Shown here: piece by piece, positions 18,180-41,351 of the stretch
Numbering within the stretch: the stretch's first letter is position 1
Layout of the letters: every line of letters starts with the position of its first letter
Origin: Atractiella rhizophila
Lineage: Eukaryota
Reading direction: 5' to 3'
Length of the DNA stretch: 64,000 nt
NCBI GenBank assembly: GCA_021432655.1
Contig: MU271181.1
Span: 201,189 to 265,188 of the forward strand
Notes under the pieces: generated by a model
Database searches by the model: none
The model's input: only the letters and a program-made list of their open reading frames with translations
Told to the model about the DNA's origin: nothing
Program-made: the position numbers and the translations under genes

Positions 18180-21100
18180 AGGGCTCGACACCGTGCCGAC
18201 CCGTTGATTTTTTGGGCAAGACGGGGACGGGACGATTACACCCCGTCCCGTTTGTCCCGTCTGCAGGATTCTTCCCTTGTCGAGGACGGGAACGGGAAGG
18301 GGTACAGTTGGCTAAAACGGCTTGCCCACCGGCTTACACGGTTTGACAGGGAGGGAGGGAACCAGGTTCAGTAATAATGATCAAACATAATCAGTTATCC
18401 CATCAGCGACATGACACTTCACTGAAGTTCTTCAATCAATAACAATCGGTCCGTCTTGAGGCATACGGAAAAGCCACTCCAATTCTCCTTTCATCCTTCC
18501 ATCATATCTCCACCACGCCCTGAGGAGCATCAATTTGTGAACTGTTTCTGCTTTCAGGGAGGTGCGACACAAGGAGATAACATCCCGTCCAGATGAAAAC
18601 ACACGTTCAACGGCGACGGAGGAAGCTATAGCACAGGAATTAAGTGTGAAATAGAACAGGAAAGGCAGCAGTGAGCACACACCCGGAATACTGAGCACAT
18701 CTCGAGCAAGTGCGGCTAGTGTGCCAAATCGACCATTCTGACCTTGATTCTTCCACCAAAGTAAAACATTCGACTCCGCATTAGCAGCACAATCGTCAGA
18801 ATCTCCTTCCTTGCTGGTGAGGTGGTTCCAGTACCGTTCTAAAGGATGTAACTGTGAAAGAGCGGTGGTTTTTTGTACACTGGAGAAAATTCGTGCATTT
18901 AACTTATCGGCTGCTGTGGTCCGCTCTGGCACACCGACAGCTGGAGGAGCAGCGGATGGGGAGGGAGCTGGAGGAACTTGGGGAGGATTGCGTGCATATT
19001 CCCGATCGTACTTGAATTTCAGGCTTGACTTGGCTCGTTCGAGGGTCTGCGGATCAAGTCCATAGTCAGGATTTTCAAAGATTGCAGGTCCCATCCGGGG
19101 ATCCAACACTACAGGAAGTATTCAGTTCACTAACCAAGTGCATAAGCAAAACACTTACAAATTGCCCAGTAGTACCATGGATAATCATCAGTTTTGGCAA
19201 AATATTTTGCTAACTTTTCGTGAGCCTTGATCAAACCGTTCATGACAACTGGCGGAGCTGTGAAAGGCAGAGTAGCGACCACATCCTCCAACTTCTCGAA
19301 GAGCTGGAGGAAAAGCAGGACAACACTACTGACCGTAACACAGGAAGTGCTGGACATGAGAGCGGTTACATCAGCAAACTTCTCCAACCACGTTGTAACG
19401 AGTTCAATTGCAGCCCAGTCATCTTCGGATAGGCATACACCTTTGAGATCCTTTGTTTGAACTGCCGAGAAGTTGTCCACTGCTTGCCTAAATGCCAGCG
19501 CTCGCTTCAGCATGAAACATGTTGAAGACCATCATGTCTGAACATCAAGGAGCAAGAGCTTCTCCTTTTCGTCCAGATCCTGCCTCGCCGTATCAATGCA
19601 ACGAAGCCACCAATCTTTCTTTTGAGGTGACGACTTAGTGCATTTCACGATGGTTCGCAGCTGGTGCTCAAGATATAGAACAGCAAGATAAATGCGTACC
19701 CTTTGAATGGCAGTGCCAACGTCAGCGTTGCTCTCAGAACCGAGAGCATCCCCATCTCTCTCCCTACTACCACCAACACGCTGCTCAAGGTCCCCAGCCT
19801 GATCAGAAGGAGCAGTGATATTCTCCAGCGTGCTTTGATATGGTTCGTGCGCCTCATCCTCCAGTGTGACAAGAGCTGGGTGCCCTAGTTGAGGTTGCAC
19901 TGAGAGGAGTGGGATCTGTAGCTGCCACAGTTGAAGAAGAGCTGCCATCCTTCACTTTGGGCCATGCGCCAACTGAATTGAGGAGTTCGATGACGGCAAG
20001 ATGGACAATATGCGGAAGACATCTTCCTCTGCGTTCGGCTGCTGGGAAGGATATACCATCCTTGGCAAACAGCAGCTCTAATTCTTCCATCATCATGTCG
20101 TTGGAGCTTGCGTTGTCCGAAACAATCACAGAAATCTAGGCTCCGTTCAGGTAAGTACTGTGACACCACTTCTTATAGAGCAAATACGTACCTTTTCCAA
20201 AATCCTCAACCGTGTGAGAACACCGTAAACCAACTTGGCAAGCTTTTTCCCACTGTGCTCTCCATGCACCTCAACGAAATCCAACAAATCGGTATTAAGA
20301 TTCCAGTTGGAATCAGCTGGATGGCCACAGATCGCGAGGAAACTCGAATTAATACTGGCGGTCCAAAGATCAAGGGAAATAGCGAATTTGCATTCCACGG
20401 ACTATAAAAGTCATGGGCCAATGCCAGTGTGACAAAATAAAATAAATGTACCTCATAGTATTTGATGAGATTATCCCCAAGGCTGTCAGAATAATCCGAA
20501 GTTACACGTCGGATCATTGTTGAAGAGGGAATCTCCAGTCAGGAACCGTGGACATAGCTCAGCAGATCCCTCAACTCCTGGCATTCAACCTCCATAAAAG
20601 GCTGCATGCTGACCGAAACCCAACGCATGAGGAGGTATTTGAGCCTTTCAGGATCTACCTTCTGTAATATAATCTATAAGTCCCATGCTTTGCCAATAGC
20701 GAACGAAACAAACCTCATTGCCATTTCTTTCGAAGGACGACCCCTTTGCAATCGAATGATTCCTCATCCATGCTTGAATACTACCTGGAGCTGGCACATC
20801 CTCATCCTCAGGCGGCGAATCCCTGCGCAACGACTTGTATTCTGGAGTCGTCAGTTCCTTTCTTGCATATCTGATGTCGGTGTCATTCAGGTCCTCGCAG
20901 GCCGGAGTATTTGCGAGTCATTGGAGGGCTTTTGTGACATATTGTCCATGCTTGTTCTGCAGATGATTGATCAAGGCGTCGTAGTTGTATTTACTTTCGC
21001 TCGTCTGGCGAAAGTAGAGGCTGCATCGGCGGCATTGAAAGATACGGTCGTTAGGAAAGACAGGGCGAGTTCTGAATGCTCCTTTCGGAACGGCAGTATG

Positions 21101-22270
21101 ATCTTCAACATGATGGTAGAAGAACTTGCACGTCGCCTTGCCGCGAGGTTCGTTATTGCGAGCTCTCTGAGTAACTTGTCAGGGTGAACAAGGAAGTAGC
21201 TAAGCATCAGGTACGCACCTTTCTCCGGGATTCTGAACCGAACCCCATTTGCTGCTCGTCATCATCAGTTGTTTCCTATTGCAACTTGCTATTAGTCGGA
21301 CGGTCAAAAAAGAATGGTTGACACCTACTCGCACCGCTCCCGGCACCTTTCATTTCTTCTTCTTTTTCTGCTCCTTCTTCTTCTGGGCTCTTGTCTTTCC
21401 CTTCTGGGTTCCATCTTCCTTTCTTCTCTCCTTCATCGCATCCGCCGTTGCTTGATTCATCTCTCTGCCATCTTCTTCTTCCTCCATAGCTCCAGCTCCA
21501 ACTCCGTCTTCCTCTTCCTCCTCGGGCACAAAGTCCAGGTCCCACATATCCTCTTCATACTCCTCCAGCTCGCCCACTTCAATCAGGATCGTTACAATAG
21601 TCGCCCCAACTTTATTGAGGTAGCGTAACAGTTCGACCATCAGTGAAGGGAATGCCGCGTGTTGCTTTCTAGTCTCGAACCAAAGCTTGACGAACGACGA
21701 GATACCTGCCCCGCCGCCAATCCCCGCTGTTTTGAGCTGTTGAGCTGAGAATTGGACGAACTCGTCATCCTCGTCCAGTGGTTGAGGCTCATCAGCAGTG
21801 GTTGACATTACGAGGGAGAGAAGGTGGAGGGAACTCAGAGCCAAAGTTGAGTTGGTGTCCTAGAATGGAATGCATGAGGAAACCATTCATACGAGAGCAA
21901 TCAAACAAGTATCTTGTCGCATCATAGCTACTCTGGTTCGCATCTGACATGAGCCTGCAAGTGAATATTAATCTATCAACAAATGTTGATGCCAAAAAAA
22001 GAGGACAAACATTTCATGTAGCTGTTTCTTCTGCGCTCTTTCCGACAGCGATGTTCCATCTTCGTTGTTGTTTTGAGCTAGGTCGACTGGCTTTTAACTC
22101 TGTTACTCTTTATACCAGAAGGCTGAAATTGAAGTTTCGGTTGATCCATGACTGTGCAGTGACGGCTCTTGGAGCAGAAGTACACCCAGTGGCAGCTTTT
22201 AAGGATTGCACCCTCTTTGCAAGGTCCGGGAATACTACATCACACGGGACCGTGTACACGCCGACGTGCG
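18180..22270 (-). mobile_element. hAT transposon with spliced, inactivated transposase (~21844 to 18432); distal TIR not found
   Basis: Motifs ISLDLWTAS, HSGKKLA, SDNASSND, RCLPHIVHLAV, LDVQT*WSST (TGA in place of the usual Arg), ASSVAVERVFSSGRD. Left end TAGGGCTCGACACCGTGCCG with CCCGT subterminal repeats. Confidence 0.85.
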
Positions 22271-22625
22271 AAAAGAAAATGAGTAATACTCATCAGAAAT
22301 TCCCTGAAACACATCATAACATGTCCATGACCTGCCGATGCAGCATCATCTTTCTCTTCCACCCTCCTTCCTCCATTTCCGCCACCACCCTTCACTTCTT
22401 GGTGCAGCTCCATACTAAGATCCATTGCTTTGGTAGAGATCGAGAACCCGCGAGCATTGACAGAAGCAAAATTTCGAAATGAGGAAAGGAAGGAAGGGGG
22501 TACATGATGATGGCCGGGTCATCCTCAGGGTACCTATTCCTGACTCTATCCTCAGCCTCAGCAAGTCATCTGCAGCAAGACAGCAAGAGGAGGAGGAGCG
22601 ATAGTGGGGTGTGAGATGAGGGGTT

Positions 22626-22684
22626 TCACCAGAAGACAAGACTGGCTAGATCCTGTTTCGCTAAGGCTTCTTCAGTTCTGGTGA
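22626..22684 (-). ncRNA. Type I hammerhead ribozyme
   Basis: Minus strand reads UCACCAGAA-CUGAAGA-A-GC(CUUA)GC-GAAA-CAGGA(UCUAGCCAG)UCUUG-UC^UUCUGGUGA: 9-bp stem I, full catalytic core, minimal stem II, stem III with one G-U pair, GUC triplet. Predicted cut between 22635 and 22634. Confidence 0.9.
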
Positions 22685-22717
22685 TGGTGAGGGCTCTTTG
22701 GGAGGCGCTCTGGGTGG

Positions 22718-22723
22718 TTTATA
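22718..22723 (-). promoter_or_regulatory. Possible TATA box ~35 nt upstream of the hammerhead (pLTR promoter)
   Basis: TATAAA on the minus strand; position alone is the evidence. Confidence 0.3.
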
Positions 22724-23211
22724 AGTGAAGGAATTGATGGGGATTGCCCATCGCATCATGCAGAGTTGTTATCTGCGCTTCAACGTAGGCTGAGGTTCTT
22801 TCTTGTGTTTTCTTTATTCATTGCAGTGTTGAGTCCTTATGTGGAAGAAAATAGGGTGGAATGTGGTCTTTGTGGCGCCTTTTTGGTCGCTCAAAGGGTC
22901 CTGACACCCCCTCTATGGGCTGTCTCTCCTGCGTTTCCCTGTTCCTCAAGATGAAGCGGCAATGCATCATATGCTTCTTGTGCTAAATGGGGATGCTCTG
23001 GATGATTCAGGGCGGTCATGGAGAGTCCTGAGGCGTCTATTCCATTCCTTTTCGATGGCAAAGTGCTGTGAGATCACTATTTTTTGCATCATTTCATCAG
23101 CGGGGCTCCTGGTCTTTGAGTGGATGGTGCGATGGTTTTATATCTTTGCTTGTGTACATTCCTATCTTTTTTTCTGATCTTTGTGGTTTCATCACAGTGA
23201 AGCGTTGGGTC

Positions 23212-23796
23212 ATGGGAGAGAATGAGAACGTCCCCTTGGTTCTCTCTTATGATCCCATCAGTGATGAATTCTCCACCCTCATGAATTCATATATCGTCAA
23301 TTCTGCAGTGCGCTTTATGGATGGACAGTTCCCCGTTCTGCTTCATCCAGGGGAGAAGAGGTGAGTTCTCTCGATTCCTGTCTCACATTAGCGCCATTTT
23401 ACTCATTTTTGGATGTAGGAGGCGCTATGAACCCTATCATGTAGCCTGGTATCAGCGTCAAGGCACCAGGGGCAGTCTTAGGACCACTTATGGCGATCCC
23501 ATGGTGTGGGCACGGTCCAAGAACTTTTTCTTGACTGCTGTGGTCCCAATGGGTTCGTTCTCTATCCTATTTCCTTTCATATTTTCGCCTAATCCATGTT
23601 TATAGAGATATACTGTCGTTTATCGCCTAGACAGTTCCGAGCGATCATCAGGAGGAGGGAGAAGGAGGGATGGCAGTATGATGATTCTGCAGATCATGAT
23701 CTGGAGAAGGAGGCTATTGACCTTTGCAAAAGGCACTCTGTATTGCCTCACAAGGTACCTTGGGGTCAGTTCATAGAGTTGGAGGCTATGAAATAA
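23212..23796 (+). CDS. 157-aa hypothetical protein, three exons, antisense to the RT
   Basis: Exons 23212-23360, 23419-23552 and 23606-23796 (474 nt); introns GTGAGT..TAG (58 nt) and GTTCGT..CTAAT..TAG (53 nt) keep the frame open from ATG to TAA. Confidence 0.7.
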
Positions 23797-24077
23797 ATGT
23801 GATTCATTCGATTCATCTCAGTATTGTCATTGCACCATGAGAGGCTGAGTTCTATTGATTCCTTCGACTTTCTTTGGGGCGAGGGCCGCCACATAACGTC
23901 TCAGAAGTGTTCTGAGGGCCGCCTTTCATGTGTACATGTCTAGTCTTGCATCAAAGTTCAAGGGATTGATTATGAGCTTGAGGTTTGCATCGATGTGGGT
24001 CGTATCACGTCTTCACAGTTTGAACAACAAAAAGGCCGCCTGAACCCCAAAAGCCTCCTTGGGGCTCAGGATACTCT

Positions 24078-24437
24078 TTTCATACTCGTCTGCTTTCGTC
24101 ATATCTTGGTTCGTCAAGACGTAACCGCGCAGAGGAGGTGCTGACGAGCATATGAGGGCTTTCCATCAGACTCTGCTCACAACTCGAGCGGTAGATTGAC
24201 TTGCGAGGCAGAGGTTGCTACCTTCGAGCCATCAGCTTCTGTGTGATGGATTTGCCTCTGAGATCCAGCTGCACGAGGACGGCTCCCTTGCCTATCTTGG
24301 TTTGTCGGGACGTAACCGTGTAGGTGGTTGCCGGCCGCTCAGCAAATTCCCATCATGAGGATCTTTGTCCTCAGTCAGGCAGATTGACTTGCAAGGCAGA
24401 GGTTGCTACCTCTGAGGGTTCAAATCCTCATGATGGG
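24078..24437 (+). ncRNA. Array of four hairpins (A-B-A'-B') with conserved apical cores
   Basis: Core A 24102-24129 vs 24293-24320 (24/28 identical); core B 24190-24223 vs 24378-24411 (32/34). Basal stems differ in sequence but pair, e.g. a perfect 14-bp stem 24349-24362/24424-24437. Strand suggested by G-U pairs. Confidence 0.65.
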
Positions 24438-25133
24438 CTCTTACATCTCCCCACAAGGCGAGGGAGGATATCAAGCTCTTTAGGCGATGTATTGTTGTGA
24501 TTTCCTCAGACTCAATCATCGTCGCTCGCTCGTCGTCATAAAGACCTTTTTGAGCCTGACACATGCACAAATGGAGGCAGAGGCGACGAAGCCAACTTCC
24601 CTCTGAAGTCTGGGAGGGCCTGTTCGCTCGGCGCTGCCTCGCCTCAGTCTCGCATCCAAGGATGGAGATTTTTCTTTTCGTCAACGACGACACATCTTTC
24701 TCCCCAATGGGTTCGATGTGAAGGCTTCTCCTGAGAGAGACCCACCTCATGGTCGCCTCTAGAAGGGTCCATTGCCAATGTCCCTACGACCTCTTATGAG
24801 ATGTTGCAGCATTCGGATTACCCCGCCGATTCCTGCTGAGCATACCCGCATCGTCCGGTAGGGTTTTTGCACGGCGCCCCCCGACATGGTGACCCCAAGC
24901 TAAATAGCAAGGTTCCAGCACGATCTCTTTACAGGGGCGAACATCTAAGTGTCCCCATTATGCTCAGTAAGTCTCTCGTCAACACCAGCTTCAGGGTGTC
25001 CTCATCGCCAGCTCGTTGGGCGACAGGTTTGGGTGATTCGTTTGTCTTTCATGTCTAGCCTTTCTGCTTTCGCTAGTAGTGTTTCGCCTTTGGTTCTTTA
25101 ACATGGTACTTTGTATCTGTAAACAGCTTTCAT

Positions 25134-26090
25134 TCATTCAGAGTCGCTATGGAGTTTTTCATCCTCATCCCTGACCTCTTGTCTCTTCCTTTTGCCGATT
25201 GCCCTCTGGGTATCATCAAATTGCCACGCTGCGTGGGACAGGCTCTTCATCTTGAAGATCTCGTCATTTCTGATGCAGTCAATCGTGACGACCATCGCAG
25301 CATATGCGTCCACCATTGCGTTATGGTTGTGCGTGAGCTCCTTGCCTGTGACATTCTTGAAGAGGGTGGCGAGCTTCTGGGGACGAGGGTACTTCTCGTA
25401 TCGGGTATTTCTGAGTTTGAGAAGCTGGTAGGGGTCAAAGACCTTCCTCTCATATGGCTCGATATCCACCTCGACCTCTTGGAATTCTCTCACGAGGATG
25501 GGCCAGTCGAATTCCTTTATGTTGTAACCAAAGATTCCGGACGATTTCGTGATGAAGTGGAGCAGTCGGGGTGCAATGTCCCTAAAAGTGGCACACCACA
25601 TGACATCCTTGTCGTAGATCCCGTGCACATCGCTGGCTGGTTTGGGGATGACGCGGTCAGGAAAGACACGTATGTTGAAGGAGAAGTGGCGATCGTGGTG
25701 CTTGGGGAGGACGACGAGGCCTATCTCGACGATATTGTCGCTGAGCGTGCTCAGTCCTGTGGTCTCCAGGTCGATGCAGATGACAAAGTCTTTCCACCTC
25801 AGTCCCATCGCCTTGGCGTAGTCGACCAGGTTTCTATATCCATCCCAGGGGTGTGCGTCGCCTTCATCGAGCGGCCTGATGCCCATGGCCTGTTCAAAGG
25901 AGCGACAGAACAGGTTCTGGCTGTGCGAGCTGAGTCGGTCGAGGTCAAGCGTGTTGAGGACCTCTGGGAGGTCCTCTTCGAGGGCGCTGCGTAAGGAGAA
26001 TCTAAAGGCGTCGTGTGCCGATTTCGTCGCATAGCGAAATGCCTCTTCGATATGGTCCTGGAGGGTCCTTGCTCTTGCGTGGTAAGACAT
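25134..26090 (-). CDS. DEDDh 3'-5' exonuclease (DnaQ / Pol III epsilon-like), 318 aa
   Basis: ExoI ICIDLETTGL..DNIVEIG, VHGI, ExoII GYNIKEFDWPIL, ExoIII HNAMVDA; uninterrupted ORF with a ~100-aa N-terminal extension and a basic KRKR tail. Confidence 0.92.
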   Translation of the reverse strand: MSYHARARTLQDHIEEAFRYATKSAHDAFRFSLRSALEEDLPEVLNTLDLDRLSSHSQNLFCRSFEQAMGIRPLDEGDAHPWDGYRNLVDYAKAMGLRWKDFVICIDLETTGLSTLSDNIVEIGLVVLPKHHDRHFSFNIRVFPDRVIPKPASDVHGIYDKDVMWCATFRDIAPRLLHFITKSSGIFGYNIKEFDWPILVREFQEVEVDIEPYERKVFDPYQLLKLRNTRYEKYPRPQKLATLFKNVTGKELTHNHNAMVDAYAAMVVTIDCIRNDEIFKMKSLSHAAWQFDDTQRAIGKRKRQEVRDEDEKLHSDSE

Positions 26091-26205
26091 GTTTTCTTCT
26101 TTAGAATCTGTTTTGGTTATTTCATCAGCCTTTATTCCTCTTAGGCGTAGTCAGGGGTTCAATCTTTTGTATTATTTTTCTGAAGTAATTCTTTCTATAC
26201 AGATA

Positions 26206-29089
26206 TCATGTTGCATATCGATTAGATTCAGTATCCCTTGGCCTTTCTAGCTCTGCATACAGCGACGTGCAGTTTGGGGGTAGCTTGAAGCATATTTTCG
26301 CTCTTTCAGAGATTGATGGGGGCATGCCAAGTTTTGTGGCAGTAGAGGCAAATTCATCGAGTGGGGGGCGAATCCTGTCCCTTTCTGTGAATGGGTTCGA
26401 CTCCACTTTGAAGAGGAGTGGGAGTATATCTTTCTTATTCTCCTTCTCTTCTAGATAGCGCAGACGATCTTTGTGCCTGACCATAGATAGTTGTGACCTT
26501 ATGATCTTGAGGGGGTATCCTCTACGTTGGAGGCGTACCGTGAAGAGTGAGATCATTTTGTCAAACTCTTTGACACTCGAGCACGCCCTGACGTATCTGA
26601 TGGCTTCTCCTTTGATGAACCCGGTCTTCTGTTTGTGCTCGTGGTACGAGTGAAAGGGAAGGTAGAGGTACTGGTTCATCTTCTTTTGAAAGATCTTGGT
26701 GGCCATCCGTCCGTGAGAGGGCAGTTCCTTGTCCTTATAGATGGTGAGATCAAGGAAGTCCACAGACTTGGTGGACAGACAGATCGTATGTGAGACGTAT
26801 CGTGGGTTTCAAGGAGTTGTACTCGTTGATGAAGGCTTCCGCTTGGTCCCGTGTTCCAAGGATGAGGGCAAAGATGTCGTCAATATATCTCTTGAAGAGT
26901 ATGAGTTTGTTGGTGGAGAGCCAGCGTTCAACAAGGTCCTTCTCGAGCAGGTGGAGGTATAGATTCGCATACTGGACTGCAACTGGAGTCCCCATGGCAG
27001 TGCATTCTTCTGCTGGTAGCACCTGCCCTGAAACTGGACGTAGGTCTGTTGTAGTACGAATCGTAGCATGCGAACGATGAATTCCCTCTTGGGGCGTTCC
27101 AATTTGGTATCCGATTGCAATATCTCATCTATGCTCCTGATGCCGTCTTCCGTGTCGATGTTGGGATAGAGTGACTCTACGTCAGCAGTCACGATCCAGA
27201 GCTGTTCCTCTCCTCGTTGCTTGCTGTTCTTGAGTTTGTCTTGGAGGAGGCGATCGAAGGCAAAGATACGGAGCAATTCTGAGCTGTCTTTGAGCACAGT
27301 AGGGGAGGTGCGCTCAAAGGGCAGGAAATGTTCTGCCAACCACCACTGCGACATGAAGTACGTGGCCCAAGTCATTGTTGGACATATCGGGCGACTAGAA
27401 GGGCTCGCCTTGTGGACTTTTGCGGTGATGTAAAACTTTGGGATGACCCATTCTTTCCTTTGGGAGAGCCACTTGAACTCATTTTGATTTATGTGTCCTT
27501 CGAGTTCCAACTCGTCAGCAATCTCGATGAGCGAGTCAAGTTCGTCCCTCGTGGCAGCAAGGGCCCTCTCCTCATTTGTCACAGCGTAGACATCTTTATT
27601 TTCGAGGTGCATCAGTGCTTGTGAGACATACCAGCCCATATCGACGGCCGCGTAGCCGAGATTCTTGTCTGTCAATATTACAAGTATGTCTGGTTGTTGT
27701 AACAAGCATTCTAGGCCTCTTCTTGAGTGGTTTGACATGTTTTGCTTGTCTGCACTATGTACAGAGTCTAGGTTCGCTTTCAGAGCATGCTCTAGTTTCC
27801 TCAGGGCACTTTCCAGCTCTGGAGAGCTCTCAGGGGGTTGCCAGGCGCTCATGGTCCTCCATCGAGGGAGCTCAGAGTTTTCTTTGTCCTGAAAGTAATG
27901 CTTGAGCCTTATGGTCCGTTTGAAGCTTTCGATGGCTTCATCGATGACGTCTAGGCGTGGTTTCGGACAAGGTATGAATTTATTGCCTAGCCTGAGGAGG
28001 TCCTTTTCTCTTCCGCTTAGTCCTTTCCCCGTAAGGTCATGTACGGGGCAATCAAGGATCCCAAGCTCGATGAACCTGATCACGGTCTCATCAGGATTCA
28101 GATTGTGTTTTTGCAATGTTTGTCTGACGCTTTCTCGAGTTCTCTTTGCACGATCAATGATGTGTAGCATATCCTTCATTCCACGTTTCTTTGAGAAGTG
28201 ATGTCTGTTTCTACTTGCTACATGCGTTTTCCTCCCCTGCCCCTTCCTCTTTGTGATCCCCGTCGATCTTGTCCGGGTCTCTGCGGTCTGTTGCGCTTGC
28301 TTTTTGCCTTTGGGAGTGTTCTCAGCAGGTTCGGTGCCAGAGGAGAGTAGACTCACTCGGACCCTGTTCAAAGTGTCAAGCTTTCTGCTTTCATGTCCGA
28401 GGCGTTTTTGCTGCTCGAATTCATCTGCTGCAGCTTTTCCCTGGATGATGGCGTCCTTTCTGAGTGCCTCCCATGATTCGGAGGCCAGCTTTCGTTCCCT
28501 ATCAATGGTATCCTTCTGCTCAGGGTGGGCTTCGGCGAGGGAGGTGTAAAACTTGTTGAGCTTTGTCGCCAACTCGATCACTATGCTTCCCTTTGCAGCA
28601 CAGTAACCAAAGCAGCGTTTTGCTTGGAGGTCCTTCCATTGTGCAATGGTCTGTACAGCCTTTGTGACTGTGACTTTCTTCATGTCTTCTAGCTGTTTCT
28701 TTAGATCTCCATCCCCATCGACTATCGTAGGCCAGGCATCGATCCATGGTTTAAAGGTCTATGGGGGTTGTGAGGGGCGTAATGAGGATGCTATGAACTT
28801 ACTTTGGGTGTCTTTTCATCACTCAAATCCTTGATCAGCTGTTGTGAAGTCCTGTGAGCAGCGTGACCCCTCTTAGTTAAAGCCTTTTTTATCGAGCGGT
28901 GATGATTTTTAGTCTGTGGTTTGCTTCTGAGAGTAGAACTCACTGAATCTTTGTAATTGCAGCTCTGATTAGGGCAGCAGCGTGGTCCGATATGGCTGAC
29001 CCATTCGTGATTGGTGGATTCGTCATCATCTCCAGCAGGGCATCGCCAGCAGAGTCGTTGCTGGGATCTATCATATCGATATCTGACAT
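26206..29089 (-). pseudogene. Penelope-like reverse transcriptase with two 5' introns and frameshifts
   Basis: Motifs LLRLGNKFIP, TDKNLG, FYITAKVHK..RPI, TADVESLYPNI, TAMGTPVAVQYANLYL, RYIDDIF, VDFLDL, YLPFHSYH..GFIKGEAIRYVRACS. Exons 29089-28944, 28851-28803 and 28758 onward splice in frame. Frameshifts at ~27003, ~26775 and probably ~26272. Confidence 0.9.
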
Positions 29090-29499
29090 GTTATCTGTAT
29101 AGGTAATTATCAGAAGTGTTTACTGATATTTGCTAGCTTTATTTGGACGAAAATTTCGTCATTGAAATGCAGGAGGAATCCTTCAGGCCACCACTTAGAT
29201 GGCCATCAGGAGACCAACGCTCTCCAGGTGTGAATCTAGCGAAAACACCTAGTTCACAGTGTCCATAATGGAGTGACTGGAACACCCTATCCTGAGTGTA
29301 CTAGTGCTCAGTGAAAGGGAATCTCTCTATAATGCAAGGCTTTATGCTCAGGATGATAATGCTGAAATCAGATGCCAGTGGTGTTTGATTTTGGGGTTGG
29401 AGCTTGGCATGGACCTTGGAGGCATATGGAACACTTCCAGAGGCATACGGAACACTTCATGGCCACATGGGATCAAAGTGGGCATTTGTGTTCTTAAAG

Positions 29500-32030
29500 G
29501 AGATGCCTGAAATTGAGATGGCGTCGGTAGAGCTGCACGTGTCGCAGCACATAGCCCTTCCTGCTCATCTTTCTTCTTTCTGGCACGAGCTCGGATGGGT
29601 GGAAGTTGTGACGAAGAAGCTCTGTTGCTAGCGGATCTTATAACGTCTTGACTAGAAAGTTGGTGGGAAGGTGAGATGGAGTTGGAAGAACTAGATCTCA
29701 TCAAAAGATGGCTTAGGCAGAAGTTCACCAAGAATATTGCTATGATCATATCATCACATCTAGGAGCATGGAGGAGGTGAGTCTCTGTGTGGGGAATATT
29801 TAAGGAAAGGATTCTAATACAGCCACTTGTTCTTACGCAGGTATGCACACTAAGTTCAGACAATGCAATTTCGTTGGCGAAATTAGGCGACGACAACCGC
29901 TTTCTGTTATCCAGCCCTCCACGCGAGCTACACACACATACCTCTATCTCATTTCTCTTAATATTTTCAGTCTTTCCCACAAGCAGCTCGAATATATCAT
30001 GAGAAGATACATCCTTTCCTATCCATGTCCAAATTGCTACTCAGCACGATCTTTCATCAAATCCTTATGTGCAGCAACTCGAGTTGAAGGTATTTGAGCT
30101 AGAGAGCTCTTTGGAGAGGGAACAGATGGACAAAGATAAGTGGAAGAAGTTTTACAAGGAGAAGGATGAGGAGGTGGATTGATTGAGGCTGGACATTGAC
30201 AAAGCCCAAAAGGTTCTTCCGTCTGCGGATTCCATGTTGAAACAGCCCATGGGAGGCATCGGAGCGATGGCCACGGAAAGAGGCACTGGAATATCGGCAG
30301 AAGATTCGATCCAAAAGCCAGTGAAACCATACCGGCCGATTATCAGCAAGGAAGATGCCGATTACCTTGGGATCTTTTGGGAAAGCAGACAAGCAGCGGC
30401 CTCAACACGTATCGGTGCTCAGAACAATATCCTCGATCCAGTCCAGGTGCTACATCAGCTCATCTTCCATGAAATCGATAATACTGTCATGGGAGCAGCA
30501 CAGTTGTCCAATGCAACCGCCGATGTCATCCAAAACGATGCCACCCTCTACACGAGAACCTATCTTGACACTACGAAGTCGATAAGAACCAGACAGGTGT
30601 TTGCAAACCACCTATCTTCCAAACATCCTGCACAAACTCGAGGAGGACTACAGTTCAGTTCTTTGTCTTGGAAAGACTGACTGGATGGCACGCATCTTTG
30701 TCACCGGTGTCCTGAGGAATAGGAGTGGAAGTGCCTACAACTATGATGATGAGGATGATTCAGCAGATGACGAGGATGGAGGCCAGATTGCTAAAAGAGG
30801 AATGAAGAGGAAGGCGAGTATCGATGTAGGTGTCGCACTGCAGGAGAGGAGAAATGGGGTAGAGAGATTGCATGCGGATCATGGTGAGCATCTCTCTCTC
30901 CTTGGGCACAAATGGGGCCAAAGAGGACCAGGGCTTGAAGAAAGCGGTGCTTCTATCGGCACAGTGGTAAGAGTGCTCGAGAAGACAATGAGCAGGAAGA
31001 GGTACAGACCAACGGTATGTTTTCAACTTCCTAAATTGCTCGACACTGAGTACTCTGCACACAGGCGAATCTCCCGAATGATCCACTTAGAGAGAAGAGG
31101 GCCAGGCAGGACAAGCTACTTGAGAACCAAAACAGCTCCGTCTCCATGCCTGACAGCATTAAGGTCTCCATTGGTGCGTACTTTGTTTGTCATGACACTC
31201 TCCGCTATTCGAAAGTAACATGACAACAGGGGAGCTCAAAACAATGGTTTCCGACAATGATTGTCTCAGAATGCTGGCTGCATTTATTGAAGACGGTGTG
31301 CTACCTCTCTGCGATGCCAATTCTCGTACCGTCGAAGGCGAAACACTTGCACAATCAGCGACAAAACACCTTCTCATTGCCGTAACATTTCCCATTCCCT
31401 TGGCACGACATTAGAGCTAGAGGGAAACAAATTGAAAGAATGGCACCTCTTGCTTGGACTCTCGCGAACCCTTCGTAATTTCCTCCACGCGAAACCCGAC
31501 ACCTTCAACTGCCACTAGGACGGAGGAAGAACGAAGGGTGATAATCTCTTCCATCACACTCGACCCAACAACAAATTCATCTTCATCTGCATCACGAGGT
31601 CCAGCATCCACTGATCTAGTGATACAGTTCGGTAGGTGGTGAGGAGAAGAATAGTGGATTTCGGAAGACGAGAATATGGAATCTGTTGGGCTGGGGAACG
31701 ATCTGGGCACTAGCTAGACCACAATACCAACGGTAACCACAAGGATCAGACTTCCCCAACACGGAAAGAGGACCATTCATGAAGAATTCGCATGCACAAG
31801 GTTTAACAATCAGTTTCATGGACACGCTCACTCCAAACGCGGCAGTCCGTTTTGTGAATACGCTGGATCAAACGGCCTTTGCTGGGAGATATAAGAGTGG
31901 TTCAAAGGAAAGCTGGGATGTGGCAGTCCTCCTTACAGTTCCACTTTGAGCTCGAAGTCTGACCGACATGGATAGAATGCAAGGTATGTGCTGACCAGAC
32001 GCATGTTCATCTATTAATGAGCGCTTGATT
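29500..32030 (+). pseudogene. Multi-exon hypothetical gene, probably disrupted
   Basis: Successive plus-strand ORFs (30183..30680, 30601..31218, 31220..31414, 31454..31642) with GT-AG intron-like gaps; no recognised domain. Confidence 0.35.
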
Positions 32031-32186
32031 AGAAAAATTGAGCATCTCCATGGCTCCTGAAGGAGTCTTTGTCTACCCGGTCTCCCCGACTGGGAGAATC
32101 CTACTATTTACCTGGGATAGTCTGAAAACTGGTTTGCTCAACCAAGATGGTACATTTCAATTTTGGCTCCAAGTTAGCAGATTAAG

Positions 32187-32398
32187 GATGTCACCTGATC
32201 TTAAAGGTGGCTTGGTGAGGGCGGAGGCGGGAGAAGTTATGAGAGAAATAGAAGCTCGAGAAATAGGGGCTCAAAGCCAAGAAGGTATGTTTCTGTTTGT
32301 CTGCCAAGTTATCAAAGGCTGATGATGTCGCCTGGTTTTAAAGGCAACTTGGTGAGGGTGGGGGCGGCAGAAATTATGGGGGAAATAGAAGCTCTGGA
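32187..32398. repeat. Diverged ~75-bp direct repeat, ~138-bp period
   Basis: GATGTCACCTGATCTTAAAGG..GAAATAGAAGCTC vs GATGTCGCCTGGTTTTAAAGG..GAAATAGAAGCTC. Confidence 0.6.
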
Positions 32399-35174
32399 CC
32401 AAGAGGATACTTTTATTGTCGCTCCGAAGTTAGCGAAGCCTAAGATGTCTCTTTGTACGAAGTCCTCTCGTTGAGGGAGACGACGGTTGGAGAAGCCATG
32501 TAGAGAGATCTTCTGCATGTTGTTCGGAATGCCAGACCAAATCGCGTCCAAATAGATGGGTCCATCAAGAGTTAAATTCTTCAGACCAGTGAATAAGAAT
32601 ATCTCCAAGATATGGATTCCTCGCTGGTTTCTTGATCGGTTCAGGTGAAGGGTAGTATTGAAGAGCATCGGTGCTGTAAAAGGGAGTGACTAGGAGGCAC
32701 CACCTCACTTGAAGATGCCTAGACTGTTCGAAAATCATTTGTATGTTTGATACAAATACAACCTGTCCCAAAATGAATTACCTCACTTCCTTCTTCCCTG
32801 CCAGTGGTAAGTCTTGGCAAGCGGCCAGGAAGTCCAATATTCTCGCAACTATTGTATGCTCATTTAACCCATGAGACGCAGGACGCAGCAGCAAGACACC
32901 GGCACTAATCCAGAGAAAAGGCCAAGCAAGATCCCAGCTACATCACAGCACTGAAAAGACTGATGCCGCAACAACGAGTACAATTGGCAATCAAGTTAAG
33001 GCAAATGTTATTCCTCAGTTGCCTGGGAAGCCTATGGGATTCTTTCTGAATCTTGCTGTAATCATATGGAAGTTGTCAGTGATGCCCACAGCGCTCTGAC
33101 AAGTAAGTAGGCTTGCGTGCGAGCAGTACTAGACGAGAAGGAGGAAACCAATATAGGATAAGTTTACTCCTCCCTCAGCTGCTCCCTTTGTTGTCTCCGC
33201 ATGGATCCCAGAGTTACTTAAACCGAAACATCAATGGGTGTGCCAGCTCACGCAAGGAGTTTAGACAGGACAAATCACAACCGGAACTTGGAGAAGCCAC
33301 AATCTGTACCAGCGGCGCTATTGCGTCGGATGCTCAAACGACTCGGAGGATCTGCGAGAAGCGAGCAAATATTCAGCCATAATTGAAATTTGAACAGCTT
33401 TAACTTACAGCAACTCGGAAAGCTGCATCATTGTTTCTTGAACGGTGCGAGATAGGAATCTGCGTTAAAATACAAATTCTAGATCATATTCTAGTGAACA
33501 TGCCACCGATTATCAGCACATGGAAGGCAAAGATAGACAGCCAAGTCAACGAAGAACAGAAGAACCGAGAGCTGGTACTGATTTGTTGAACGCGGGAAGA
33601 GTCTAAGAAATAGGATGCCATTAGCAAGCAGGAGAACCAGTCAGAAGGCACCTAAATGGTGCGAATTGATAACGGAGAGAGAAGAAGAAGAGAGGAATAC
33701 GGTGGAGGAGATATCTGAACGAAAAATCATCCTCAAGTACGCATGCATAGGAGCAGGCAGGGCTCGAGAGCATGGGGGAAACTCAGGACAAGAGTTTGTC
33801 AGGCGCAAGAACAAAAGGTAGGAAATCAAGCATGGACAGATCTTCCAGTGCTGAGCGAAGAACTTGTAAGGTCTCATGAAGTAATCGTGAAGACGTGGAA
33901 AGCATAATTTGCAATTTGAAAAGGACTAACGGAGAAGCTGACTGCAACCAACACACCATCTCCGACATCCTTAACGGAGAAACAGCCTGCAACAACACAC
34001 TATCTCCGATGTCTTTAAGATCATCTATCTTTCTCTTCTTGCAATTCAGTTAATGTCAAACGATCCTCAATCCTCCTGCAGCTGCACAATTTCAATTGGA
34101 AACCAAAGAAAAACACTCTACTTCGCCAGGTCTCCATTCTCTCGTTCCTGACTACACGCCGTCAATTCACTCTCCGCAACACTTTTTTTTCCCTATTCGA
34201 TCAGTGTAAACCTATCCCTGAATCTATCCCATTTTCACTTAAACGCCTCCAATTGAAAAGCCCATGCCAGTGCCAATGTATCTTCACATCACCGTTAACT
34301 CAGATATGCACGAAACCCTTGGAGGTTGTGTGTCCGATCGGAGCTTCGCAGGGATATTATTCACTCTTTCAGGGTGCACACTGGATCTTTACAACCTGTT
34401 TTCTGACCGACTTTGCTTGAATGGAAAACTTGCAATCATTTAATTTTGAGGTTACACAGAGTTGCCTAACAATTCCGACATTCAAGCAAAAGACAGGTGG
34501 CAAATTTCATAGTAAATTATTCGAATTTAATCCCCTCATGGACCTCCAATCGACAACTTAGAAACCACGTTCGCAAGCTCCTAAGGTGATAGCACCAATA
34601 TTCCTCTAGAAATACGCATAGAGGCTGCCTGTAATCCACTCCCTAGACACATAGGTACAGCTAAGTAAACTCAAGATTGCAAATTGTGCCTCATCATCTC
34701 AAGTCTTCGATAGCAAGTTTCAACAGCAGTTGAATCGATCCTACTTCCGCACCGTTTTTTGTACAAATCTAAGGAAAAGACTTACTGTTCAAGGAGACAG
34801 CATGGACGGTCTGCCCTACTCTCCCTCAGAACTAACCACTCAAGTTCCTCGCTTCTTTCTTTCCTCGTCGAGACTTGAATTGGCAGCTTGATTGAGTCCA
34901 TTGGATGGACAGAGCAGAAAAAAATGAGGGGTAAATGAGATTTAAAAGCACCTTGCCATCCCCAAACACTCTGTAAGACCTGTCGGATCCAGCAAGGTGA
35001 AGAAACAATATTGAGTGCCTCAGCGGTTAAGCCCAGACCAGACCCCCCTGGGAGTCTCGCTTGTGTGAGTCATACAGGGATGTTAGGATTGCCACCAGCC
35101 CAGTTCGTCCTGTCAGACGAGCGTGCGGGACTGGCACAGCCTGTCGACTGTCGATCACAAGAGAAGAAGATGAA

Positions 35175-38100
35175 TAGGGATGGCTATCGGCTCGTATCGT
35201 AACGGATTTCACTATTCCGAGCGGCACGAGCATTAAGCCGTCCTCGTACCATGTCGGAGTGTCACTCAATTTATCAAAAACAGGCTAGTTCGACTGCAGA
35301 CCGCGTCATCTGTCCATAATACGGGTTATGTCCCAAGTGTTTTGCATTGTATCTCATTTTTCTCCTGCTACTCTATTTGGCTGCCTTCAAAACATCCCCT
35401 TCCAACGCTTTCAATTGCCTGTGAAGATCCCTAAGGTGAGCTCCCCTCTGCATCCGGAGTGCGGTCTTGAGAAGAATGAGATCACGAATGGTTTCGGCAT
35501 CCAAGCGACTGCGACGAATACCTAGAGTATCGCGTGCACCTGAGAAGATGTGCTCGACCCTAACAGCACAACCTGCCAGCTCTATTATTATAAAGGATAA
35601 CAAAAGAGAAAGAAAGCTCATCCGGAATTGACAAAATATCCTGAGCCAACCGTGAAAGGTTCGGGAGATCGTGAGTTGATTCGTATTTCCAGAAAGCCAA
35701 TGGATCAGAATCCCAAGGTAACACACTATGTCTAAATAAATGGTTAATCTCTTTTATGACAGGATCCTCACTAGCTCCAGGAGTAACCCCGTGCTGAAGG
35801 GAAGCAAGGAAAGCAGCTGTTAACTTCGGCTTTGCCTTTGTGGATTGTCTGGAGGGTTTTGAGCGGGGAGAAGTTGGCTCAGGAGGATTGACACATGTCT
35901 TATAGTAGTGATATCTGAAAAGAGCGATGAAATTCTCCTTGTGCTGCAAGACATCATCATGTTCACTATCAAAGACAGAAGAGTCAAGGAAAGCGACACC
36001 AAGACGAGGATCGCAAACTGTTCCGAAGTCAGACTCATTGCAGAGCAAGGGCAGAACAAAATGACATACTGATATCATAGATGTAATAAGGTGAAAGATC
36101 AGAGCGGTAGTGATACTCACTAAGCTTATAGTAACAGTCAAGCAAAGCTTGCCAGTACTCTTTCTGAACTGTCTTGTCCGTAAGACTTGAGATTTCCGTC
36201 TTCAGGTGTCCTAGGAGAGAATGGTAGACACCAAGAGTTTGCGAGAGGCAGGAGGACATGGTCATTGACATGTCGTAGGTTGCCTGCCGAAAAACTGCAA
36301 GCCATCTGCAGACCTGAATCCAGCTATTCAGTAATAGTATAGTTCTAAGAGATAACAAACCTGTTCAAATCGAATTCCACTCTTTTTCGCTGAGGTGCAG
36401 TGAACTCAGAAGCTCATGACGATCCAGATAAGCTTCAATGACATCCTTATAGCGAATTCCAAGGTCAAGCATGTCATGTGTTGATCCCCAGCGTGTTTGC
36501 ACGTCAAGGATCAACATACGAAGGGATTTTTCGGCTATGCTTTCAAATTGCTTGAGAGCATCTTCCAAAAGATCGAACCAGCTCTGCTGGCGCTGAGGAG
36601 ACCCATGTATATGCTTAATGATTGCTCGCACCTGCTCCTCTGATTAATGATAAGGAATGATAGAGCATAAGATATACCTTGGGGATTGCTCCTCTAATCT
36701 GCTCGAAATCTGTCTCCATTCCGTTCAGCTCTTCCTCGCCTAGTTTCCCTGCATCCATCTGTTCATTTGCTGGGTTCTCCGTGACACACTCCTGATAGTT
36801 GACGTCCCGTGAAAGTGATGTAACTTCTGTCGGATGCCCACTCATCGTATCCGTCCTCTCTTTCGCCTTCGTAGCTGACCGAGATTTGGCCATACATTGA
36901 GAAAGTCTAGGAGGGCGAGAACTGCAAGGTGAACGATATGGGGCATACAAAGAATGTGGTGCTCAGAAGCATCAAAGTCGATGCCTCGCTTCTTCATTCG
37001 TTGCTCAATCCCGGTCAGCATTGTTCGATTGTTTGAAGCTCCATCAGTGACAAAGCATCCAATCTGTACAACCGTTAACGAATATGCATGAAATATAATT
37101 AAAGCAGATACTTGATCAGCCACTCCATACTTATCAACTATTTTCATAATGACATCCGCCATGTTCTCCCCTGTATGTGGGCCAATGAGTTCTTCAAACC
37201 CGACACATACCTCATTCAAGTCCCACTTGCTATCAATGAAGTGTGCATTAACACAGAGGAATGCATAGTGATTTTCTGAAGTCCAGTTATTAAGTGAGAG
37301 ATGGATCTTGGTTCCAGTAGCCTTTCCTCATGCTTCAGTAGGCTGTTATGAAAGCGTCGAAGTACGCACCTTTAGATATCTAGCCATTTCTTCTGTAGTT
37401 TTCAAAGCAACCTTACATATACGCTCCTTCAGAACCTTTCGGCTTGGTATTTCAAACTTCTTGTCACTATTCTCTTCTTCCGAAAAGCGGAGTCCTCCGT
37501 TTTCAGTATCAGAAATTTCAATCTTGGAGGCGTGTCCACCGAAGATATATTAGATGTTCCTGAAGGATGGACTTTCTACAATGCTGAATGGAAGGTCTTC
37601 TTCGACAACAAAGCGAGTAAGGAGGTCCTCGAAGATAGTAGAATTACAACCCTATGTATCATATGGTCAGCACCTACCGATTTCTGAAAGAGCCACAAAC
37701 CTGTGAGCCATACTTCTTTGCTACTTGTCGCAGGATGTCATCGATTCCTTGGCCCTTTCTTGCAGCTCTGGATCCATCTTTCGAATCAATCTAGATGGAA
37801 TTTCAGGTGTACAGGAGAACTTTAAATGAATGACTTTGCAATCAAAGGGATGAACTGGTATTATGCCTGCTGCCTTCTGCATCTCCTCCTCTGTGATCGC
37901 CATCTCCTTGTCCTGCTTTTCCTTCAAAAAGCTGAAGAACGACCTGATTGAGCGCCCATGATTTTCCATGTGATTACGGAGAGTCCTTGTATTGCCATTG
38001 CTGGCAGCTGAAGAACGAATGACTCTAGGGCAATGATTGCACTTAAAGTACTTATCGCCTTCTTTATGCTTCGGTTTGAGATATCCAGGAACATCCTCCC

Positions 38101-39508
38101 ATTTTTAAGGAATGGTAGAAGTAATAGACAACTGCACGGCGGTGACTGTAGGTGACTGCTAAACCCTGTGCTTCCATCGATCAGTATTTTGACAGCAATG
38201 CAGCGTACATACAATGTCTTCAGTTGCCTTTGGTTAGCGCCCCGGAAAGTTGACTTTGCAACAATGGAGCCATCAGAATGAAGCTGTCCACAATTTAGCT
38301 ATCATGAGATGTTTCACAGGCACATCATGTAGAGCGCACCTTTCTCCACTTGTTGTCCTTCTTTGAGCCATCAATTTTCAATGGTAATATCTCTGCAATC
38401 TCAGCTGCCTCGATATCAATGGGGTCAGGCTCCAACTTTGCATCCTCCTTCTCCTCTTGGTGTTGATCCTTCTCATTGAGTGTGAAAGCTCCATCTGGTC
38501 CTATCGGATCAACGAGACCTTCAGGCAGAAGAATAGCGTGGATGTGGTCTGCGACTGCACATAGATATGCTTTACGAGCACGGAGAATGACTTCAGGAAC
38601 CGAAGAGGGGGACGTTTGAAGCTCCTTCCACAGAGTAGCAAACGCTTTCAGACCATCTTGATATTCGACATCGTTGACAGATGAAGGGCGCCATCCTGAG
38701 AGAGCAGCATGGAACGGGTCGTCATTGTCTTCAGATTGAGATTCCACTTGAGCAAGAAGAGACGTCGCTTTAAGGTAAAGAGGCTACTGTTGCTATCCCT
38801 TGCATGTTACACTGTTCTCCACATAAAGTGTGAGAACGTACCGCATTAGCGATGCACGGCATGCTCCCATTTGCAGTGATAAGAGTCTTGAGACAAGCAT
38901 AGCCAGGTATGTCTGTCAACCTTGACACTAGTCAGTCACCCATGGACAGACTTTGTAAGAACTCACTCCGCCTCCAACCCTTGCTTCCTCTGCATCTCAC
39001 TCAAAGCAGTTCCATCCTCATTATTCCATTTAACCATATCCCTCAGCTTACGTTGCCTTTGAGGTCTCTTCTGCCGGTCTTCCTGAGGAACCATGATTGC
39101 TATGCGAAAGCGAAAGGGAAAGTCCGAAGAACTTGTCTGATCAGAGCTGAAAGGAAGGCACATTTTATAGACCGGGTCGTGGTGTCAGATCGACCAAGGA
39201 GAGTGAAGCATGAAGGCCTTCGAGAAGGTTTCAGGTGCAGTTTCGAGTATGGCTCGCGCCGCTTGCAGAATAATTTGAGATGTCGTTTTGACACAAGTGA
39301 ACAGGGAATGCGAAATACAAACTCATGGCTGTAGAACTAGACTCCATCATGGATTCCGCAGTATCAAGTCGATCCAAGCCGGACGGCACAGGAAGGCAGA
39401 CGTATCGTATCGTATCGGTGCTAGAATGGTGGGAGAGTTGGACGGTCGGGTACGGAAACACGTATCGTTCACGTACGGCAGAAAATTACGATCCGATAGC
39501 CATCCCTA
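35175..39508 (-). mobile_element. Full-length hAT transposon (4334 bp) with inactivated spliced transposase (~38747 to 35373)
   Basis: 15-bp TIRs TAGGGATGGCTATCG; flanking duplication GAAGATGAA; BED-like finger (FKCNHC..TLRNHMENH), PHTGENMA, TDGASNN, CMPHIVHLAV, LDVQTRWGST, LSRLAQDILSIP, VEHIFSGARD. Confidence 0.93.
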
Positions 39509-40300: not shown

Positions 40301-41351
40301 CTTCAAAGTGCCATTTAAATATTTGTGGAAGAGGTGACATGAGATTCGACTGTATGACTGTGGGGATGAAGGCTGTCGGCTTCCTCGATCAAATATTACG
40401 CATCGATTAAGCCCGTGTGGCGCAAGAATAAATTCAGACTCCTGGGCTGAAAGTTCTGGACTATCAGTGAATTAAGGCTTGCACCAAGCGAAAGAGCCCG
40501 GGATTAGGACAACCCAGGAGTGTGCAGGGAGTAGGGACTGACAATGTGATGAGTTAGGATTGATGCCTGGGAAGGACTATCACGAAAACTTTGGATCCTC
40601 TCATTGGTCATGTTCAACCTACATGCAACGATGAATCAAGAACTTTCCCAGCAGAGAAAGGAAGGGAAATCCTTATATCCTTGCTTTACAGTACTAGGAG
40701 GTTCAAAACCTTAATCCTCCAGGGGTCGACGTCGATACTGCGGAATCCATGATGGAGTCTGGTTCTACAGCCATGTAAGTTCGGTTACAGAGATCTGATT
40801 TAACTTGAGTTCTGTCGTCTGTCGTTGTCATGGAATCATCATTTAGCATTCAATGCACGATGCTACACTCCTGTCCCGTAACGTCATTCTTAATCCCGGC
40901 GAACAAGTTTATCTTTGGAGTTCGCGGCGTTGTGTGATCTGTTCTGTCGGCATCTTGAGAGAATGGCATGGTGCAGGTGAAGGTGTGTCTGTTCGTGTTT
41001 TTCCTTTTCGGGGACACAAATTGACCTGAATTCAGCATTTCGTCGCCCCTCTCATTGAATTGAATTGCAGAAATACTTCACACCAAGGAGCAGAGTGTGC
41101 GAGTGTCCAGTGCAGTGCTCTCCAGCATCTTCCCAATCATCAGTCATCTGTATTTTCGGTTGAAAGGGGATTTTTCTGTGGAAATTATACCATTGTCATT
41201 CATCATTCAGACGCTTTTGCTTCGTGCGTTCAATTCTTAGATATTACATCAAAGAAACAGAGAAATTGAAAGGTTGATTGTTGATTGATCAACATCCGGA
41301 TCTAAAGGAAGTAATTAGTGCAACTTCAGCGGCACCAGAAATCAAACGTGC

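Follow-up and report, generated by a model that had tools for sequence, protein, structure and literature searches.

Penelope-like elements (PLEs) that lack an endonuclease (EN) have been described from fungi and from bdelloid rotifers. The fungal Coprina elements, such as Coprina-1_Alen, combine a PLE-type reverse transcriptase (RT), with its DKN motif and thumb, with the absence of a GIY-YIG domain (PMC8557442, PMC4209133, PMC13159263); their description in the accessible text of these papers also includes truncated copies with telomere caps, introns that are kept and, in the terminal repeat, a type I hammerhead whose helix III is long. Coprina is described as having one open reading frame (ORF), the RT of Coprina-1_Alen lying in ORF2 (PMC13159263). 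The Athena elements and Terminons of bdelloid rotifers are EN-minus telomeric PLEs with accessory ORFs, including DEDD-family 3' exonucleases, and a 3' hammerhead; Terminons reach 40 kb and carry a DEDDy exonuclease (PMC6431247). Transcripts of Penelope (D. virilis) and of Chlamys-3_cRei begin in the pLTR and contain a 5'-UTR intron that likewise begins there and ends before the ORF; for Chlamys-3, a longer intron is described as an alternative (PMC8557442). How genes downstream of the RT are expressed from one terminal-repeat promoter, with introns retained, is a question to which we found no answer in the accessible literature on telomeric PLEs.

Here, we describe an element on the minus strand of a 64,000-nucleotide stretch of Atractiella rhizophila contig MU271181.1 (the window). 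By its traits, rather than by a tree with named references, it is a decayed endonuclease-less Coprina-like Penelope element with a DEDDh exonuclease. It shares with Coprina the RT type, the missing GIY-YIG domain, the hammerhead, the retained introns and perhaps the telomere-capped truncated copies, but has a second, downstream gene, encoding the exonuclease, with a predicted splice acceptor of its own, and so lacks the single-ORF trait. With the Terminons it shares the accessory exonuclease and the 3' hammerhead; however, its family measures only ∼7–10 kb (unit length 7.8–9.7 kb by terminal overlaps of L001, L005 and L020) and its exonuclease is DEDDh. An internal inverted repeat around the RT is not described in the accessible text on Coprina, and a non-exhaustive literature search found no report of the repeat presented below or of RT-skipping splicing in PLEs.

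The element and its two genes

The RT gene occupies 26228..29089 (minus strand), with predicted introns at ∼28943-28884, the acceptor of which is taken from the gene model of P0050, and at 28802-28759. An earlier note on this DNA had described the gene as disrupted by frameshifts; breaks do exist in the frame (near 28880, 27005, 26790 and 26280), and the two introns additionally interrupt its 5' 330 nt. It is the breaks near 27005, 26790 and 26280 that mark the window copy as decayed. The RT is 31–38% identical to 18 metagenomic proteins, with five further weaker matches, and the motifs DKNLGY, FYITAKVHK, YIDD and FIKGEAIRY, common to the 18 homologues, identify it as PLE-type (DKN motif, core and thumb). 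RVT_1 was found in the homologues and weakly in a piece of the window RT (E 0.019). The frame stops at 26228, as in close homologues, and no GIY-YIG follows; among five homologues scanned, only the distant P0022 has one. The nearest proteins are from A. rhizophila: two exonucleases (93% and 85% identity) and an RT N-terminus (96%) that starts as at the ATG at 29089.

Behind the RT lies an intact ORF of 318 aa (25134..26090, minus strand) for a 3'-5' exonuclease (RNase_T, 1.6e-18; D-x-E, D, H and D motifs), the H-x(4)-D motif of which makes it DEDDh, the DnaQ-like type. An exonuclease ORF is found at this place in the window and in 19 of the 20 relatives with an intact RT end. The window protein sits on a long branch of the exonuclease tree, and its lineage may have acquired the gene separately. 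An additional ORF of 455 aa, weakly matching an F-box-like domain, is present in L015 (5189-6550), L016, L017 and L019 (3798-5165); in L019 it follows the RT, and no exonuclease was found within 1.5 kb.

Copies of the element, seen in contigs from two runs of one sample, form a multi-copy family in which depth drops toward the 5' end. Loose ends occur at 22582, at the 3' terminal repeat, and among 13 of 214 loose ends that were listed at least two carry telomere repeats, at 24543 in the expected orientation and at 27542 in the opposite one; near the window copy, no telomere array was found within the window. One copy has lost 28027-29060 (joint 28026-29061, with a 30-nt side), the deletion stopping 2 nt from the 5' arm of the repeat; a splice product was rejected as the source of this joint, the ends of which are not GT-AG. 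Scans of viral and prokaryotic genomes returned no relative. Upstream of the RT, a high-copy stretch (29348-32000) is deeper than the RT and contains broken plus-strand ORFs (30183-31218); neither these ORFs nor the 3' region matched any of the 41 loci that we collected or any Pfam family. The 3' region holds two diverged 190-nt direct repeats (24102-24437) with a 26-bp hairpin (24349-24437), and relatives carry 370-nt repeats in the corresponding region. Distant relatives (L027–L039) show a two-ORF layout, with ORF1 upstream of the RT, hammerheads and terminal contig overlaps.

Terminal repeat and predicted splice signals

The 3' terminal repeat of the window copy (22627..22723, minus strand) contains a TATAAA (22723-22718), a type I hammerhead-like motif 48 nt downstream of it (22683-22627) and, from 22629, a weak donor-like GTGAAA, which is non-consensus and stands at the site of the relatives' leader donor. 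The hammerhead-like motif has the core and three stems, with cleavage predicted only, and the same core occurs in nine related loci; Rfam gave no match in 22000-33000 and three weak sub-threshold matches across seven relatives, and the window hammerhead fold has a z of -0.63. All nine hammerhead loci have a TATA box 65–112 nt upstream and a donor 29–43 nt downstream (canonical in eight, GTGGCT in one), and where a contig holds both, this donor lies ∼600–800 nt before the RT ATG. The 3' strand of hammerhead stem I (22627-22635) overlaps the donor-like GT, so that folding of the ribozyme could be in competition with recognition of the donor. The leader exon includes the hammerhead, and its cleavage there would take the cap off the RNA. 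Within the window, a search 5' of the RT revealed neither a terminal repeat nor a conserved donor, the sole promoter-hammerhead unit being that at the 3' end, and the window copy may therefore lack the leader exon.

Acceptor-like signals precede both genes. A strict motif of branch point and YAG precedes the RT ATG in 12 of 15 sequences, where shuffling predicts 1.06; for the exonuclease ATG, in the window and 19 relatives, the figures are ten of 20 and 0.93. In 17 of 19 relatives, or 14 of 16 when near-identical pairs are merged, a YAG ends 3–10 nt short of the exonuclease ATG, in spacers that otherwise differ. These counts are not independent because the loci are related (30–80% exonuclease identity, with three near-identical pairs), and the RT ATG of each relative is the first ATG after the acceptor, picked by eye. 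They leave out L013 (broken RT), L014, L018, L022, L024 and L025 (contig ends inside the RT) and L027–L041 (distant or fragmentary), and the test for the repeat omits loci without an RT 5' end. In the window, the spacer between the genes (26091..26227, minus strand, 137 nt) comprises the 3' arm of the repeat and then a predicted branch point CTGAT (26128-26124) and an acceptor CAG ending at 26108.

Spacers of 12 of the 17 relatives with an exonuclease acceptor contain no GT at all, and neither the 14 relatives checked nor the window have a canonical donor at 150 nt or less from the RT stop. A short intron fusing RT to exonuclease was rejected, no conserved donor lying nearby. Because the acceptor is conserved, there is no donor near it and a donor is found upstream, after the TATA box and hammerhead, the exonuclease mRNA is probably made by skipping the whole RT gene, with one donor serving two acceptors; we infer the use of these sites from the conserved splice-like signals. 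The subgenomic splicing of retroviral env is an analogous one-donor, two-acceptor scheme. Unlike in Penelope and Chlamys-3, the alternative acceptor would lie beyond the entire RT gene and serve a second protein. L020 and L023 have no second acceptor and place an ATG 1–2 nt behind the RT stop, so that translational coupling may also exist in the family. A conserved donor with two acceptors would be a concrete answer to how downstream genes of telomeric PLEs are expressed, and the significance of the locus is carried by this conserved design as much as by the repeat.

In relatives, the leader intron contains a conserved 245-nt structured RNA that ends at the RT acceptor, with compensatory changes in 24 of 62 predicted pairs. 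It occurs in 11 loci (L001:822-1063, L005:4986-5224, L006, L009, L010, L011, L012, L004, L014, L018 and L025) and has no Rfam match. Among its predicted helices, those that do not vary contain the branch point and the bases that precede the AG; local masking of acceptor 1, the site before the RT ATG, is therefore possible in relatives. A covariance model of the relatives' leader matches the 11 loci and not the window, including a hairpin-rich stretch (29150..29355, minus strand; z -2.71 for 29040-29400) that precedes the RT acceptor and probably belongs to the leader intron. The leaders of L001 (480-700), L009 and L011 also contain a CCCTAAACCC telomere-like stretch ∼130 nt inside the intron, and the intron in these three loci has a TGGCAG-GT site repeating the TGGCAG of the RT acceptor.

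The inverted repeat around the RT gene

An imperfect inverted repeat of ∼55 nt joining the start of the RT to its end, with a core of 17 nt matching at 16 positions, had been reported in the earlier note. The repeat is real: a gapped alignment pairs ∼26178-26237 with 29063-29115 through 44 Watson–Crick pairs, and the 17-nt core was reproduced exactly. Its most compact part, 26195-26227 against 29070-29102 (33 nt, 82% complementary), is the highest-ranked inverted pair in 20000-36000, and a weaker extension (29041-29061 with 26241-26267) appears in the fold. The 5' arm (29063..29115, minus strand) spans a predicted branch point CTGAT (29113-29109), a predicted 3' splice site AG (29096-29095) and the RT ATG (29089-29087), in the order branch-like CTGAT, CTATACAG, five bases and ATG. 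The placing of the start codon in this arm agrees with P0050, an annotated protein of another copy, which opens with the same 47 residues. The 3' arm (26178..26237, minus strand) consists of the final RT codons, the TGA at 26230-26228 and the initial 50 nt of the spacer; as had been proposed, this TGA is the RT stop, closing the frame whose translation agrees with the conserved C-terminus of the RT. The window spacer has 137 nt, compared with 61–93 nt in those 17 relatives that have an acceptor, and the surplus (∼50 nt) equals the length of an arm, which suggests that an inverted copy was inserted at the RT stop. The arms were rejected as terminal inverted repeats of a DNA transposon around a captured gene: both overlap coding codons, the flanks show no target-site duplication and the RT–exonuclease order is family-wide.

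The best ungapped inverted score in the 6.8-kb element (22580-29400) is 36, against a maximum of 31 in dinucleotide shuffles (0 of 224 reach it), and the RT stop region against the 5.5 kb upstream scores 41, where the shuffles reach at most 28 (0 of 200). A ranking by compact helices places the repeat first of 138 windows; self-BLAST of the whole window at E 0.01 did not return the pair among its matches. By net folding energy (∼-29 kcal/mol; sense -28.7, antisense -30.1) the duplex is not unique, because partners of like strength (-27.7 and -30.2 kcal/mol) also turned up for two of 20 arbitrary windows of 100 nt from the element. Scored against shuffles, the repeat is beyond chance, and what distinguishes it is its compact complementarity together with its position, not its folding energy. 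A pairing of the RT start with the end of the exonuclease (-19.5) fell within the null range and was discarded.

In a partition-function fold of 26060-29300, a length (3.2 kb) at which equilibrium folding predicts weakly, pair probabilities are 0.95–1.0 across most of 29063-29102, including the AG and the AUG, and ∼0.55 across 29105-29115, i.e. the branch point; acceptor 2 lies mostly outside the helix, 50–70 nt away. Folding of the sense RNA agrees with the earlier suggestion that the RT gene is looped out and its start masked, the AUG lying inside the helix and being paired at ∼1.0. The sense helix contains no G-U pairs, three sense mismatches turn into G-U on the antisense strand, and the arms also pair as DNA (∼-20 kcal/mol). 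The 5' arm has local structure (z -3.35 for 29040-29120), with two possible hairpins over the branch point and AG, and the 3' arm has little of its own (z +0.97). Removal of the leader intron reduces the duplex from ∼-29 to -13.5 kcal/mol net, and the exon part of the helix remains.

Complementarity of the arms in other copies had been set beforehand as a check. The 41 loci include 14 with both RT ends, at 33–37% RT identity to the window, and the arms are complementary in none of these distant relatives: by alignment, near-start scores are 15–27 in the 14, compared with 41 in the window, and by co-folding of 13 of them, net energies are -4 to -15.5 kcal/mol, compared with -30.4 in the window, with 0 of 13 beating all control windows. 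The compact-helix ranking likewise found no equivalent pairing in the 14. Judged from these sequences, the repeat is not a family trait, a conclusion that concerns the distant relatives and not other Atractiella copies. As the same two acceptors are present there without the pairing, RT skipping in relatives would need no repeat. A substitute duplex between a U-rich leader stretch and the RT end in L001, L006, L009 and L010 (shuffle p 0.02–0.3) was rejected as compositional, ranking only third, fourth or lower among purine-rich windows and being equalled by 33–44 of 57 controls.

Possible roles of the repeat

The reading that we prefer, tentatively and at slightly below an even chance, is that in the Atractiella lineage the repeat forms a long-range RNA duplex that regulates splicing. 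A role in splicing is favoured because the 5' arm spans exactly the branch point, AG and ATG. Where elements lie in a tandem array, the promoter, the hammerhead and a single 5' splice donor would all come from the terminal repeat. Joined to acceptor 1, just before the RT ATG, this donor would give the RT mRNA; joined to acceptor 2, just before the exonuclease ATG, it would remove the whole RT as an intron and give the exonuclease mRNA. To this, the Atractiella lineage would have added the ∼55-nt inverted copy of the acceptor-1/ATG region directly behind the RT stop. Local hairpins in the 5' arm could delay the use of acceptor 1; with the 3' arm transcribed 2.85 kb later, the duplex would bury the branch point, AG and AUG and bring the leader to 50–70 nt from the branch point and acceptor 2, so that the exonuclease would be favoured, or genomic RNA kept unspliced. 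We infer the formation of the duplex and its effect in vivo from the repeat and its predicted stability, and any function ascribed to it rests on a single decayed copy. Against a splice switch speak the absence of the pairing from the distant relatives, the two arbitrary windows of similar energy, the missing upstream terminal repeat and the non-consensus donor-like site of the window copy, and a sense helix that lacks G-U pairs and is slightly less stable than its antisense counterpart. Splicing during transcription may also reach acceptor 1 before the 3' arm has been made.

Long-range pairs in human pre-mRNAs (PCCRs) suppress looped-out exons and obstruct splice sites, according to the accessible text of PMC8052449. 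The proposed arrangement would be analogous to these, not homologous, with one donor and two acceptors of which the first is obstructed or looped out by a distant complement; PCCRs, however, are defined by conservation, whereas the window pair is known from one copy. Taken as a whole, and held with somewhat less confidence than the splicing role by itself, the scheme would be that the clade expresses its accessory exonuclease by retrovirus-like subgenomic splicing and that Atractiella has gained, from an inverted copy of the RT acceptor, a 2.85-kb duplex that sets the RT:exonuclease ratio, a newly born riboswitch-like control. If functional, the repeat would be a rare example from fungi of splice choice governed by RNA pairing over several kilobases, with an origin still visible as an inverted copy of the site that it blocks.

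A neutral origin is the first alternative, and we regard it as unlikely, though worth serious weight: a template switch primed by microhomology would have copied ∼50 nt of the RT start backwards into the spacer, leaving a functionless, decaying relic. The proposed microhomology is GGGAT before the RT stop, which can pair with ATCCC at 29067-29063, and the absence of the repeat from 14 of 14 relatives, the spacer lengthened by one arm and sense-strand mismatches without G-U bias all fit such an event. The family also rearranges often, with several deletion joints, one of which reaches to 29061, next to the arm. According to the accessible text of PMC8557442, PLE insertions commonly contain partial copies in inverted orientation. 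The inversions known from PLEs, however, derive from the 3' end and are truncated on their 5' side, unlike an internal 55-mer, and a neutral copy is unlikely to have taken exactly the branch point, acceptor and ATG and to have landed exactly at the stop. Transitions account for two of six core mismatches, compared with ∼70% of copy differences, which tells against a relic at numbers too small to test. Were the repeat non-functional, the splice architecture would stand and the repeat would be a copy- or lineage-specific relic.

The earlier note had suggested a possible translation switch, in which the two ends of the RT gene pair on a bicistronic RNA, so that the RT AUG is masked and ribosomes gain access to the exonuclease AUG. 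We consider this improbable, and less likely than a role in splicing, the arm also covering the branch point and acceptor AG. The almost fully paired AUG, the part of the helix that outlasts acceptor-1 splicing and the close-set start codons of L020 and L023, which have no acceptor, would suit it. However, the weak net energy left after that splicing weakens the case, the exonuclease ATG lies 88 nt past the helix with further ATGs in the spacer, and a bicistronic RNA is not needed for an exonuclease preceded, in the window as in most relatives, by a predicted acceptor of its own.

Equally improbable is a role in retrotransposition, with the arms pairing on genomic RNA or first-strand cDNA to keep the RNA unspliced or to guide template jumps. 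PLEs keep introns through retrotransposition, as described in the accessible text of PMC4209133 and PMC8557442, both strands of the repeat can pair, as can the DNA, and the 28027-29060 deletion ends next to an arm; but this deletion is a single case with a 30-nt side, no copy among the 13 joints listed lacks exactly the looped-out RT, and relatives do not have the repeat.

Chance complementarity of AT-rich, partly palindromic sequence is very improbable: short palindromes in the arms, the two energy-matched control windows, the silence of self-BLAST and the many position pairs that could be named interesting after the fact would allow for it, but no shuffle reaches the observed scores, the repeat ranks first among the windows compared and it coincides with an acceptor, a start and a stop. 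Scored in the same way, eight of nine other 6.8-kb tiles of the window reach 25–30. The remaining tile reaches 79 through a separate and stronger inverted pair of 53 nt (39324-39375 against 40723-40775, 92%), the two halves of which lie ∼1.4 kb apart and probably mark the termini of a small DNA transposon.
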